From positions 64,557 through 128,556 of the forward strand of contig CAYPEN010000003.1 in the NCBI GenBank assembly GCA_964409875.1: a stretch of DNA of 64,000 bases, in the 5' to 3' direction. Positions 51,735-57,650 of this stretch are shown piece after piece (the stretch's first letter is position 1; each line of letters starts with the position of its first letter). A program made the position numbers and the translations under genes. The notes beneath the pieces were generated by a model, which saw only the letters and a program-made list of their open reading frames with translations, did not search any database and was not told the origin of the DNA. The DNA comes from an uncultured Gammaproteobacteria bacterium (GTDB taxonomy: Bacteria > Patescibacteriota > Microgenomatia > Levybacterales > GWA1-39-11).

Positions 51735-54614
51735 ATGGACAAAAAAATTATTATCAAAGGAGCCCGTGAACACAATCTAAAAGGAATAGATGTCGATATC
51801 CCGAAAGACAAATTAGTCGTTTTTACCGGACTTTCCGGAAGCGGTAAGTCATCTTTAGCCTTCGATACTATTTATGCCGAGGGACAGAGGCGTTATGTGG
51901 AGAGTCTGTCATCATATGCGCGGCAGTTTTTGGGTATCATGAAAAAGCCCAATGTAGATTTTATCGAGGGGCTTTCTCCTGCAATCTCAATTGACCAAAA
52001 GACAACATCCCACAATCCCCGTTCAACCGTCGGAACGGTCACAGAAATTTACGATTATCTTCGGCTTCTATTTGCACGAGTCGGGCATCCCCATTGTCCA
52101 AAGTGTGGGAGAGAAATAACGCGTACGACAAAGGAAAAAATAGTTGAGGAGATAGTCAATAAATTTGTTGGTGTGCATCCGACGAAAGTCATGATACTAT
52201 CTCCTATTGTCAGTGGTAGAAAAGGGGAATACATCGACCTATTTAAAGACCTACGGAAAAGATCTTTTCAGCAGGTAAGAATTGACGGGAAAATTATAAG
52301 CCTTAACGCCGATATTTCACTAATCAAAACCAACAAGCACACCATCGAGGCGATAGTCGATAAACTAATTTTGGATAAAAATTACGAAAGACAACGGGTT
52401 TTGGACTCTGTCGAGCAGGCCTTGTCTTTGGGAAGCGGGGAAATAATTATCTCCGAGGTAAAGGATAAAAGTTTTACATTCCCCGAAACGCCAACTGAAA
52501 TGGAGGACACATTTTATTCTGAGAAGTTTGCATGCCCTTATGATGGAACACCTATGCCAAAAATTGAGCCCAGACTTTTTTCGTTTAATTCTCCTTTTGG
52601 TGCGTGCCCTGAGTGTAATGGGCTTGGAAATATTATGACTGTTGATGAGGAATTGGTTCTCAATCCCCATCTGACAATTTCTGAGGGAGGAATTTTAGCA
52701 TTTGCCAATTTGTATGACCGAGAGACCTGGCTTACAAGAACTTTAAAAACGGCTTTTGAAGAAAATGATATCCCGATGACGGAGCTTATTATGACTCTTA
52801 CGCCTGAGCAAAAAAAGATTGTGTTGTACGGAACTGGGGATAGGGTTTATAAAGTAAAAGGCAGAAATCGCTTTGGAGAGCACACCTCAATTTACGAGAC
52901 GTATCCTGGAGTTGTCGGATATTTACAGGCTCGTTTCCTCGAGACCGATTCCGAGCTTATAAAAAAGGAAATCCAAAAATTTATGACCGCAAAAGTGTGT
53001 GACACATGTCTTGGTGCAAGGCTCAAACCTGAAGCATTGGCGGTAACAATTGACGGCAAATCAATTGTTGAAGTTTCGGATTTGTCCATTGAAGATTGTT
53101 ATGAATTTATGAAAGGGTTGAATGTAAAACTCGAGGGCAGGGAAATTCAGATTGCAACAATAATTTTAAAAGAAATTAATGCCCGCCTGAAATTCCTTTT
53201 TGATGTGGGGCTTTCATACCTTACGCTTTCGAGGTCTGCTGAATCATTGGCAGGAGGAGAGGCGCAAAGAATACGGCTTGCATCCCAAATTGGGAGCGGA
53301 CTTTCAGGGGTTCTGTATGTTCTTGACGAACCCTCCATTGGACTTCACCCTAGGGATAACACAAAGCTTATCGGAACACTTAAACACCTTCGTGATATCG
53401 GAAATTCGGTAGTGGTTGTTGAGCACGACAAAGAGATGATGATGGAATCGGATTATATTTTTGATTTTGGACCGGGAGCGGGTGAACACGGTGGTAACAT
53501 TATCGCTCAAGGAACTCCTCAGCAAATAGAAAATGATGAAAATTCTATTACTGGAAAATACCTATCAGGAAAAGCAAAAATAAAGATTAAGAAAGAGAGT
53601 CTTATTGAACCTGAGAGCCAGCGGTTCATTAGCCTTAAGGGCGTTACAGAACATAATTTACAAAATATTACCGTTGATTTTCCGCTCGGCAAGTTCATTT
53701 GCATAACGGGAGTATCAGGGAGTGGTAAATCAACACTAATAAATGACGTTTTTTACCATGCGGTGGCTCATTACAAAAATCCCTTCCATAAAGAAAAACC
53801 CGGAAAATTTACCGAAATATCTGGATACGATGAAGTAAAGAGGATTTTTATGATTGACCAGTCTCCAATTGGCAGGACTCCCCGTTCAAATCCGGCCACA
53901 TATACCGGTGCTTTTACTTATATACGGGATATTTTTGCAAATTCACGGGATGCCCGGATGAGAGGGTATGGTCCAGGCAGGTTCTCATTCAATGTTAAAG
54001 GTGGAAGATGTGAAACGTGTGAAGGAGAGGGACAAATAAAAATTGAAATGCAATTTCTACCCGATGTATATGTAAAATGCGAAACCTGCAATGGTACCAG
54101 ATATACGCAGGATACTCTTGAAATCCAATTTGATGGTAAGAACATTTCTGAAGTTTTAAATATGTCTGTTGAGGAGGCAATTCCTTTCTTCTCATTTCAC
54201 GAACCGCTTTCTTCGCGCCTTACAACTCTGAAAGAAGTGGGTTTGTCATATATTCGTCTTGGACAACCGGCTACTACTCTTTCAGGGGGTGAAGCGCAAA
54301 GGATAAAACTCGCCTCAGAACTTTCGAAAAAAGGAGGAGGAGGGTCTTTGTATGTGCTCGATGAGCCGACTACGGGACTTCACTTTGCTGACCTTGAGAA
54401 GCTTATCCAGGTTTTAAGACGTTTGGTTGATAAAGGAAATACGGTTATTGTAATCGAACACAACCTCGATCTTATTAAAAACGCCGATTATATAATCGAC
54501 CTTGGACCCGAAGGGGGACACTTGGGAGGAAAAATTGTTGCAACCGGAACTCCGAAAGAAATAGCTAAAGCACCTTATTCTTATACCGGACAGTATCTCA
54601 AAAAGGAGCTGTAA
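51735..54614 (+). CDS. uvrA: Excinuclease ABC subunit A
   Basis: Two ABC ATPase modules with zinc-finger inserts; 959 aa. Confidence 0.95.
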
Positions 54615-56452: not shown

Positions 56453-57650
56453 AGCTAAGGACCTAAAAAAGCGCGTATCTTCGTATTTTTCAAATAAGGC
56501 ACTTGATGCAAAGACATTAAAATTGGTATCTCTTGCTGCAGATATTGAGACAATTCAGGTTTCCTCGGAAATTGAAGCATTTCTTCTAGAATCGACACTT
56601 ATCAAAAAGCATAAGCCTTTTTACAATATCAAACTCATTGATGATAAGTCGTATCCTATGATTGAAATAACTACGAACGAAAACCCATCGGTTACTATTA
56701 CCCGGAAAAAAACAGACAAAAAAGCACACTATTACGGTCCCTATTCCGATGCAACAGCCCTTAAAACAGTTCTAAAGCTTATTAGGCGAATCTTTCCTTA
56801 CCAGTCGGTGAAAAATCATCCAAAAAGAAAATGTTTGTATTTCCATCTGGGACTTTGCCCTTGTTTGCCGGTAAATCCTGAAAAAAGGGAGGAATACAAA
56901 AATAACTTAAGGAATATAGGGAGATTTTTAGACGGAAAAAAAGATATGGTAATTAAATTATTGAGCAAAGAACGGGATAATTTTGCACAAGAAGAGGAGT
57001 TTGAGAGGGCCGCTTTGGTGCAACAGAGAATCGAGCGGATAACACTCATAACGAGTCCTACATACGACCCATTCCATTATATGGATAAGCCGGATTTTTA
57101 TTTTGAACGCATAGAAAGAGAAGTGCAGTCATTGAAAGAAATTCTTGCAGACTATTATGCTGATTTGGGAAATCTTGAGAGAATTGAATGCTATGATATT
57201 TCAAATTTTTCAGGCAAGCAAGCGACGGGGTCGATGGTTGTATTCCTAAACGGAGAAAAGGCAGCCAAAGAATACAGAAGATTTAAAATAAGGACTAAGG
57301 ATACACCTGACGACTTCCATATGATGCGGGAAATGCTCATGAGGCGCCTCAATAATGATGGGTGGCCCATTCCGCAACTGTTAGTTATTGATGGTGGAAA
57401 GGGACAAGTGGGAGCGGCGTTAAAGGCGTTGGCTAATATGGGAAAAAGAATCCCTGTTATTGGACTTGCAAAAAGAGAAGAAATAATCGTTGTCCCCTTA
57501 AAAAAACCTGGAGGAATTGAATTTGCAGAAGTAAAACTTCCTCATTCAACACCCGGCATTAACCTTCTGAGAAGAGTGCGTGACGAAGCGCACCGTTTTG
57601 CAGTTACATATCACAGGCTGCTTCGGAAAAAAGCCATGCTTCCCTCCTGA
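56364..57650 (+). CDS. uvrC: Excinuclease ABC subunit C, compact form lacking the C-terminal HhH domain
   Basis: N-terminal GIY-YIG ([25 protein letters not shown]), a UVR motif ([16 protein letters not shown]) and an RNase H-like IDGGKGQ motif. 428 aa. Overlaps the previous gene by 89 nt. Confidence 0.8.
   Translation: [428 protein letters not shown]

Follow-up and report, generated by a model that had tools for sequence, protein, structure and literature searches.

In gamma-proteobacteria, the nucleotide excision repair (NER) gene uvrC stands in a gacA/uvrY-uvrC-pgsA cluster; the passages of PMC6786584 that treat this cluster describe, citing work in Escherichia coli, both polycistronic and monocistronic uvrC transcripts and promoters within the upstream open reading frame (ORF), and give the functional relationship of gacA/uvrY to uvrC as still unknown. 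The uvrY/uvrC overlap in E. coli K-12 measures 4 nucleotides (nt). In a survey of same-strand (co-directional) gene overlaps across 338 genomes, none above 60 bp was judged genuine, and holD-rimI, at 56 bp, was the longest accepted (PMC2478687; Palleja et al., 2008). Here, a longer overlap at the start of uvrC is described from Levybacteria, in a 64,000-nt stretch of contig CAYPEN010000003.1 (GenBank assembly GCA_964409875.1; hereafter the window), where a transglutaminase-like gene lies between uvrA and uvrC; "TG" is used as shorthand for this gene and its protein. The names of database hits assign the stretch to Candidatus Levybacteria, which belong to the Microgenomates within the candidate phyla radiation.

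The locus is probably an old and tightly packed Microgenomates block, with the order lexA<>uvrB-(purM-like)-uvrA-TG-uvrC-holin_4_2-like-SecG-SBP_bac_5 (<>, divergent genes), in which TG is a passenger and the expression module of uvrC is embedded in the end of TG. In Levybacteria, this whole module would occupy the last ∼70 TG codons, and would comprise a sigma-70-type promoter, a leader of ∼85 nt, a strong Shine-Dalgarno (SD) sequence in Gly-Gly codons, a weak GTG or TTG start, and the first ∼30 uvrC codons, which contain the catalytic GIY motif and overlie, in the +1 frame, the end of the TG helix and its basic cytoplasmic tail. The TG protein would be exported via its signal peptide and held at the outer face of the membrane by the C-terminal helix. 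Its gene would probably be co-transcribed and translationally coupled with uvrA from upstream promoters (the lexA-divergent uvrB promoter and a weaker one before uvrA), and uvrC would be expressed partly by read-through and mainly from a short transcript of its own that starts near position 56281 and carries no TG start codon. Because the 3′ end of TG would then also be the promoter and 5′ end of uvrC, the pair could not be separated without damage to uvrC, and its synteny would be locked; tight packing of this kind does not show a shared function of TG and uvrC.

In the window, uvrA (51735–54614; Pfam UvrA_inter, UvrA_DNA-bind, and ABC_tran), TG (54614–56452; 612 amino acids, aa), and uvrC (56364–57650; 428 aa) follow one another on the plus strand, and both this contiguity and the out-of-frame TG/uvrC overlap of 89 nt (56364–56452), as claimed in an earlier sequence-only reading of the stretch, were reproduced to the exact coordinate; relative to TG, uvrC is read in the +1 frame. 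Within the overlap, the TG frame encodes the second half of the C-terminal transmembrane helix (residues 573–597; 56330–56404) and the basic tail that follows to 56449, and the uvrC frame encodes residues 1–29. The uvrC start, GTG at 56364, is preceded with an 8-nt spacer by the SD sequence AGGAGG (56350–56355), which is coded by TG Gly580-Gly581, its first A being the last base of the Ile579 codon. To assess conservation, 80 species-level loci encoding TG relatives (39–76% identity) were annotated by tBLASTn, and the overlap and start codon counts rest on 77 species-level Levybacteria loci. Overlaps of 62–125 nt (median 77), always 2 mod 3, were found in 76 of the 77; uvrC starts with TTG in 62 and GTG in 15, never with ATG; and (A)GGAG(G) precedes the start in 72, at a spacing of 8 nt in 56, written in conserved Gly-Gly codons of the TG C-terminal helix.

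The position of the catalytic motif leaves little freedom in the choice of start. The motif (GVY in the window UvrC) begins at 56403, 50 nt ahead of the TG stop, and in the overlapping loci G(V/I)Y sits 11–77 nt inside the overlap; therefore, no start past the TG stop would give a functional UvrC. The latest in-frame start before the motif would still leave a 74-nt overlap in the window. Gene callers yield a 412-aa UvrC, which is wrong because it starts past the GIY tyrosine. Both protein ends are conserved, the mark of a genuine overlap in PMC2478687: 13–15 codons precede the GIY motif in the UvrC of all loci, TG is conserved in length at ∼600–620 aa, and its helix-plus-basic-tail ending is kept in 78 of 80. 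On these comparative grounds the overlap is real and old, far beyond chance, and is not the product of a sequencing frameshift, which the sequence-only reading had named as a possible refutation and which is contradicted by the same frame relation in 76 of 77 loci. Since no real case above 60 bp was found in the 338-genome survey, the TG-uvrC pair is an unusually long, well-supported overlap. A terminator-like match within the overlap (56392–56406) was dismissed as chance (13 such matches found against 11.2 expected); it lies in sequence coding for the conserved UvrC N-terminus.

A sigma-70-type promoter for uvrC appears to be embedded in TG, judging by its conservation. The best sigma-70-like match between 48 and 60 kb of the window is TTGACA-17-TACAAT at 56246–56274, ∼90 nt ahead of the uvrC start, in which the inferred −35 box (TTGACA, 56246–56251) is coded by TG Leu545-Thr546 and is separated from the inferred −10 box (TACAAT, 56269–56274) by a spacer of 17 nt, within the 17 ± 1 range; 11 of 12 consensus positions match. 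The pattern TTGACW-N16-18-TAnAAT has three matches in the window against 0.54 expected by chance, and the other two, one intergenic (15956–15984, plus strand) and one at the 5′ end of a TTG-started ORF (3584–3612, minus strand), are likely real promoters. In the comparison set, TTGAC[AT]-N17-TAnAAT was present at the homologous TG position in 73 of the 80 loci, with a spacer of exactly 17 nt in 73 of 73, and, one locus excepted, the distance from the end of the −10 box to the uvrC start was 80–101 nt (median 86). The same motif was found elsewhere 23 times in 2.4 Mb, 14 of them in the 11% that lies outside long ORFs, and it therefore behaves as a promoter consensus of the lineage.

Synonymous sites under this motif are constrained. 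An unbiased scan of codon choice covered all 137 conserved TG columns whose amino acids are at least fourfold degenerate, and the four strongest outliers were the two −35 codons, the −10 Thr codon, and the SD column. Leu545 was written TTG in 75 of 78 loci (96%), compared with a background frequency of 15% among Leu codons of these genes, and Thr546 was written ACA in 75 of 77, against 37%; Thr553 in the −10 box used ACA in 50 of 52 loci, and the SD column used GGA in 62 of 64. A control set of 23 further TG columns with invariant Leu, Thr, or Gly showed mixed codon use. Over the −10 box the residue itself varies (Thr, Lys, or Arg), and the nucleotides T-A-n-A-A-T are kept (TAcAAT, TAaAAT, TAgAAT).

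Two loci provide natural controls: in L048 the overlap is resolved, with a 160-nt spacer, an ATG start of uvrC, and an intergenic TAGAAT, and in L061 there is no uvrC downstream of TG. Both lack the −10 box, the ACA codon, and the Gly-Gly SD, and both keep the FLTN peptide. In two further loci (L041:9640–9700 and L075:2840–2900), the usual site is absent and TTTACA-17-TATAAT stands ∼24 nt downstream, an apparent turnover of the promoter within TG coding sequence. The sequence-only reading had held that the junctions leave no promoter space and that the genes are hence co-transcribed; for uvrC this fails, and the internal uvrC promoter that it had named as contrary evidence is what the comparative data point to. 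For the putative leader, an Rfam scan of 54000–58400 gave nothing relevant, with no match to the leader, and the predicted fold of the leader is not better than that of shuffled sequence (z = −0.17), for which reason the idea of a riboswitch or thermosensor was given up.

The closest analogue is the gacA/uvrY-uvrC-pgsA cluster of E. coli and Pseudomonas, in which, as in TG-uvrC, uvrC lies right behind an unrelated gene throughout a clade, its start overlaps that gene, and a membrane-related gene follows. The two differ in that the upstream gene encodes an exported transglutaminase-like enzyme rather than a response regulator, that the overlap spans 62–125 nt and includes the catalytic GIY motif rather than 4 nt, that promoter, leader, SD, and start would all lie within coding sequence, and that uvrA is immediately upstream; the gacA/uvrY-uvrC cluster has promoter elements inside the upstream ORF, whereas the TG-uvrC promoter is inferred, not mapped. 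The holD-rimI pair of Enterobacteria (PMC2478687) is likewise a clade-conserved, same-strand overlap of unrelated genes in which both protein ends are conserved; however, it measures 32–56 bp, and TG-uvrC (62–125 nt; 89 nt in the window) exceeds the survey limit of 60 bp; in TG-uvrC the overlap carries the SD of the downstream gene, with the putative promoter ∼90 nt further upstream. The locus is thus a variant of known phenomena, namely the intragenic promoter, the same-strand gene overlap, and a reduced UvrC architecture.

The order uvrA-TG-uvrC was present in every Levybacteria locus with enough flanking sequence, and the farther flanks differ. Beyond Levybacteria, a metagenome scan with outgroup TGs yielded 41 loci with at least 1.5 kb on each side of TG; both uvrA and uvrC surrounded TG in 28, neither was present in 13, and no locus was mixed. 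Pacebacteria-like, Curtissbacteria-like, and other loci, with TGs 31–36% identical, have the order uvrA-TG-uvrC, but their uvrC, which starts with ATG or GTG, either overlaps TG by only 4–8 nt or follows it after a short gap, and neither their TG nor the sequence just past it contains a strict match to the promoter motif; automatic ATG calls with overlaps of 44–56 nt in outgroup loci are uncertain and were not used as evidence. The loci without uvrA and uvrC read lexA<>TG-holin-SecG-SBP5 wherever lexA was identified. In one of them (L137:1–1100; contig Ga0100395_1004336), the lexA-TG spacer holds a short ORF matching the UvrB N-terminus followed by a stretch matching the UvrA C-terminus, which by this homology is the scar of a uvrB/uvrA deletion with TG left in place. 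A Gottesmanbacteria locus, lexA<>uvrB-uvrA-uvrC, has a 6-nt gap between uvrA and uvrC and no TG. The sequence-only reading, which saw TG as inserted in a uvrA-uvrC unit, is a fair description given this relative. Two outgroup loci (L086:3372–4028 and a JGI contig with P0500) carry IS200/IS605-type Y1 transposase genes beside TG or uvrC, with the junction intact.

Taken together, the TG-less Gottesmanbacteria locus, the uvr-less TG loci, and the remnants in L137 indicate that the gene block is ancestral and that TG and the uvr genes can be lost independently, and the long overlap with its embedded promoter would have been elaborated in Levybacteria alone, from an older TG-uvrC junction with simple coupling. 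The retention of TG where uvrB, uvrA, and uvrC are deleted, as in 13 of the 41 outgroup loci, argues against a repair function and contradicts the functional tie to repair that the sequence-only reading had implied; by this evidence TG is a passenger in the uvr cluster and not a repair factor. Several points nonetheless weigh against the passenger and embedded-module model. Promoter activity, like the transcript structures, is deduced from one kind of evidence, sequence comparison, and the match was scored on the sigma-70 consensus, not on an experimentally determined one from the candidate phyla radiation (CPR). The Leu-Thr of FLTN is conserved as protein and could explain part of the −35 conservation, though not the codon choice. 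Moreover, uvrA and TG are linked in all Levybacteria loci with no overlap to lock them together, for which passenger status alone is no explanation, and the position of TG is always downstream of the lexA-divergent promoter, where damage-linked regulation is conceivable.

This last point, together with the position of TG next to lexA, behind a TTGTCA-17-TAGAAT element, in uvr-deleted lineages, is the basis of another and rather unlikely reading, in which TG belongs to a LexA-controlled unit, so that DNA damage would induce a surface enzyme along with uvrB and uvrA for remodelling of the envelope or of host contact, and uvrC would be uncoupled by its constitutive embedded promoter. This uncoupling would mirror the division in E. 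coli, in which uvrA and uvrB, but not uvrC, belong to the SOS genes. A search for LexA operators found direct repeats in the lexA-uvrB spacer only; no palindromic box was evident, and neither uvrA nor the uvrC promoter has a copy of the repeats nearby. The repeats, TATAC(T/G)AA in three copies with an 11-bp period (48487–48516, plus strand), are a candidate operator or lexA promoter element, are the sole site in the window with 0–1 mismatches, and belong to a block conserved in relatives; the repeated TATACGAA motif occurs only at 48487–48516 in the lexA-uvrB spacer, and not near the uvrC promoter or uvrA.

It is also quite unlikely that uvrA, TG, and uvrC form a single operon with no internal promoter, in which TG would be co-regulated with and functionally tied to NER or the damage response. 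Such an operon would account for the tight junctions (overlaps of 1 nt between uvrA and TG and 89 nt between TG and uvrC), for the uvrA-TG-uvrC order in all adequately flanked Levybacteria loci and most outgroups, and for the divergent lexA at the head of the block or, in uvr-less lineages, directly before TG. It does not fit a promoter within TG that is conserved at the nucleotide level, the persistence of TG after loss of uvrB, uvrA, and uvrC, the uvr cluster of Gottesmanbacteria that has no TG, or the predicted location of TG outside the cell, and SecG and SBP5 are just as syntenic and just as unrelated to repair. At the first of these junctions, the uvrA stop TAA and the TG start codon share one base (TAATG), AGGAG stands 5 nt before the TG ATG, and across 78 loci the two genes are mostly separated by −4 to +50 nt, which fits co-transcription and translational coupling. 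Thus, the part of the sequence-only claim that has TG co-transcribed with NER genes holds to the extent that the uvrA-TG gap is tight enough for it, and falls short for uvrC, with its own putative promoter in TG.

A very unlikely alternative is that TTGACA…TAnAAT is no promoter and reflects constraint at the protein, codon, or RNA level on TG or the uvrC leader, with uvrC expressed by read-through only. Leu545 and Thr546 are indeed nearly invariant as residues, and the AlphaFold2 (AF2) model of TG places the site on a beta-strand within a folded domain; yet this leaves unexplained the extreme preference for TTG, the persistence of the −10 nucleotides through Thr, Lys, and Arg substitutions, the invariant spacer, and the decay of the motif where no uvrC follows and its relocation in two species, and the leader, with neither an Rfam match nor a fold better than shuffled sequence, speaks against a constraint on RNA.

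The overlap as an artefact, with uvrC starting after the TG stop or TG lengthened by a frameshift error, is scarcely credible and already refuted by the comparative data: gene callers do disagree on the uvrC start (412 or 428 aa), but no start later than the GIY motif, 50 nt before the TG stop, can keep it, overlap, frame relation, and SD are shared by 76 of 77 independent assemblies, and TG lengths and the helix with its basic tail are conserved. Equally hard to credit is a +1 ribosomal frameshift in the overlap producing a TG-helix-UvrC fusion with UvrC tethered to the inner membrane face, for although uvrC is +1 relative to TG and the topology would place UvrC in the cytoplasm past the membrane helix, conservation in the overlap, apart from that owed to UvrC coding, revealed no slippery or shift-prone site, the strong SD, start codon, and dedicated promoter indicate independent initiation, and outgroup uvrC genes begin at a plain ATG, with overlaps of 4–8 nt or short gaps.

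The TG protein is, by sequence and predicted structure, an active-looking enzyme of the transglutaminase fold, presumably acting outside the cytoplasm. Pfam Transglut_core (PF01841) scored 59.2 bits against a gathering score of 23, the core spanning residues 305–412 (55526–55849), and the Cys351/His394/Asp411 triad was invariant in 18 and in 88 homologues; enzymatic activity is a prediction from these features. The AF2 model (predicted local distance difference test score, pLDDT, 86) contains helices at residues 2–14, in the signal peptide, and 573–597, at the C-terminus, and the layout comprises a signal peptide, two N-terminal beta-sandwich regions, the transglutaminase core, a CARDB-like sandwich, and a C-terminal membrane anchor. 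The predicted Sec signal peptide (54614–54679) consists of MKK, a hydrophobic core, and a VYA|KD cleavage site, and an A-x-A-like site is conserved in the alignment. The tail past the C-terminal helix has 3–30 residues and a median net charge of +4, with at least +2 in 78 of 80 loci; together, these features suggest an exported protein with a C-terminal anchor.

The nearest solved folds by Foldseek were 3isr (E = 3e-10), 3kd4, and animal transglutaminases. The putative cysteine proteases 3isr (Cytophaga) and 3kd4 (Parabacteroides) share with TG the core fold, the Cys-His-Asp triad, flanking beta-sandwich domains, and export, but identity is only ∼10–16%, and TG has its own N-terminal beta-sandwich region, the CARDB-like domain, and the C-terminal membrane anchor. 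Of the earlier description of TG as a secreted transglutaminase-like protease, the fold is borne out, the export is predicted, and "protease" is an assumption. Rad4/XPC use the transglutaminase fold in eukaryotic damage recognition; a repair role of this type was rejected for TG, whose signal peptide, complete Cys-His-Asp triad, and C-terminal anchor predict a place outside the cytoplasm, and which persists without uvr genes.

The UvrC encoded from within TG is compact, consisting of a GIY-YIG domain, a beta motif, a helical bundle with a Cys motif and a putative UVR motif, and RNase H2. As a whole, it matched the NCBIfam equivalog TIGR00194 at 389.4 bits (cut-off 285.45), in two stretches. 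The GIY-YIG domain was recognized by Pfam (38 bits; cut-off 22.6) and by similarity to PDB 1yd6/1ycz (E = 5e-24), and residues G14, Y16, Y27, G29, R37, and E76 were invariant in 70 homologues. The UVR motif scored slightly under its Pfam cut-off (19.7 against 21.5 bits) and passes it in many homologues, and the AF2 model (pLDDT 87) has helices at 172–229, in the UVR/helical-bundle region. The RNase H2 domain matched Pfam UvrC_RNaseH_dom at 156 bits and aligned to 8b0q and 2nrt with E = 1e-34, with an invariant DDH triad (D278, D343, and H410). The Cys (Fe-S) motif (56832–56864; residues 157–167) is reduced to C157-x3-H161-x3-C165-x-C167; the window UvrC lacks the first consensus cysteine, as does Deinococcus radiodurans UvrC, and the consensus of more distant compact UvrCs keeps two upstream cysteines (FPFCxC…).

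As the sequence-only reading had proposed, the 428-aa UvrC lacks the (HhH)2 domain: no Pfam HhH match was found in the window protein or in its longest relatives (up to 523 aa, with the same Pfam domains), the sequence stops at the linker leading into (HhH)2 in the UvrCs of Thermotoga maritima and D. radiodurans (2nrt, 8b0q), and the AF2 model terminates with the RNase H2 helix. In addition, residues 230–268 (39 residues) replace ∼156 residues of full-length UvrCs, a missing segment of ∼115 aa, and are modeled as two short helices with no beta-sheet; from this and the two-piece alignment, it follows that the UvrC also has no counterpart of the inactive RNase H1 domain that Seck et al. (2023; PMC10085695) described at the center of the protein, a reduction that the sequence-only reading did not mention. 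The compact form is not special to the window genome, since ∼100 of the best 150 cluster representatives at 50% identity were of this type, the named ones from the profile search belonging to Levy-, Pace-, Curtiss-, and Gottesmanbacteria, several lineages of the Microgenomates. Like the Levybacteria UvrC, the engineered D. radiodurans UvrC-Δ(HhH)2 and Cho-type homologues lack (HhH)2 (PMC10085695); the Levybacteria form differs from the former in being natural, clade-wide, and also devoid of the RNase H1 "platform" domain, and from E. coli Cho in keeping the C-terminal RNase H2 nuclease with its DDH triad. The engineered protein retains binding to UvrB and DNA as well as dual incision, although its 5′ cut is weaker (PMC10085695), which makes a functional natural HhH-less form plausible, and by this analogy the compact UvrC may perform both incisions as well. 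A literature search found no description of an HhH-less UvrC in CPR bacteria.

At the upstream end of the block, lexA (47766–48419, minus strand; Pfam LexA_DNA_bind and Peptidase_S24) is divergent from uvrB, as in relatives. In their spacer (within window positions 47766–48617), TTGTCAA reads as a −35 box on both strands, and this block is conserved in relatives. The uvrB gene (48618–50591, plus strand) starts at ATG 48618, from which relatives align by tBLASTn at residue 1–2 of MFDLISKY, and the GTG at 48597 of the longest ORF is probably wrong. The element TGGTACAAT (48601–48609) lies ∼9 nt ahead of this ATG, and TGnTAnAAT ends ∼9–13 nt before it in the window and in ∼20 relatives; the spacing suggests that the uvrB mRNA is leaderless or nearly so. 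In seven uvr-less loci (L094, L096, L097, L098, L100, L104, and L148), the lexA-TG spacers measure 68–82 nt, and TG starts 6–12 nt past TTGTCA-17-TA(G/C)AAT, which overlaps the divergent lexA −35 box. To judge from these spacers, TG looks leaderless in uvr-less Microgenomates, directly under the lexA-divergent promoter.

Between uvrB and uvrA lies a PurM/AIR-synthase-like gene, divergent in sequence (50606–51598, plus strand; Pfam AIRS and AIRS_C), which scored 162 bits against NCBIfam purM, under the cut-off of 236; at this position, a clear homologue was found only in L027 (68% identity), with weak ones in L007 and L013 (24–25%), and the uvrB-uvrA interval of the other loci examined holds different content or a short gap. 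The weaker promoter candidate before uvrA is TTGAAC-18-TACAAT (51604–51633). Downstream, the conserved block of a holin_4_2-like membrane protein, SecG, and an SBP_bac_5 protein (57694–59714, plus strand; Pfam) comes after uvrC or, in some relatives, straight after TG. The Levybacteria-type locus occurs in many metagenome-assembled genome records titled "uncultured Gammaproteobacteria bacterium" (L002–L008, L010–L011, L013–L016, L018–L021, and others), the closest of which encode UvrAs 85–96% identical to that of the window, and in single records titled Saccharimonadales, Eisenbacteria, and Methylomirabilota; these titles look like mislabels or mis-binning.

The rule that co-directional overlaps above 60 bp in cellular genomes are annotation errors has a well-supported exception in TG-uvrC; the junction places in one stretch of ∼200 nt a beta-strand, membrane helix, and basic anchor of TG together with the putative promoter, leader, ribosome-binding site, and catalytic motif of uvrC. 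It should be useful to gene callers, which mis-start uvrC here, and to studies of dual-coding constraint. It is also a caution that tight gene packing in CPR bacteria is no proof of function or co-regulation, the neighbor TG having outlived the repair genes. Finally, the Microgenomates provide, in a widespread natural UvrC that has neither RNase H1 nor (HhH)2, a minimal enzyme with which to probe the contribution of both domains to 5′ incision.

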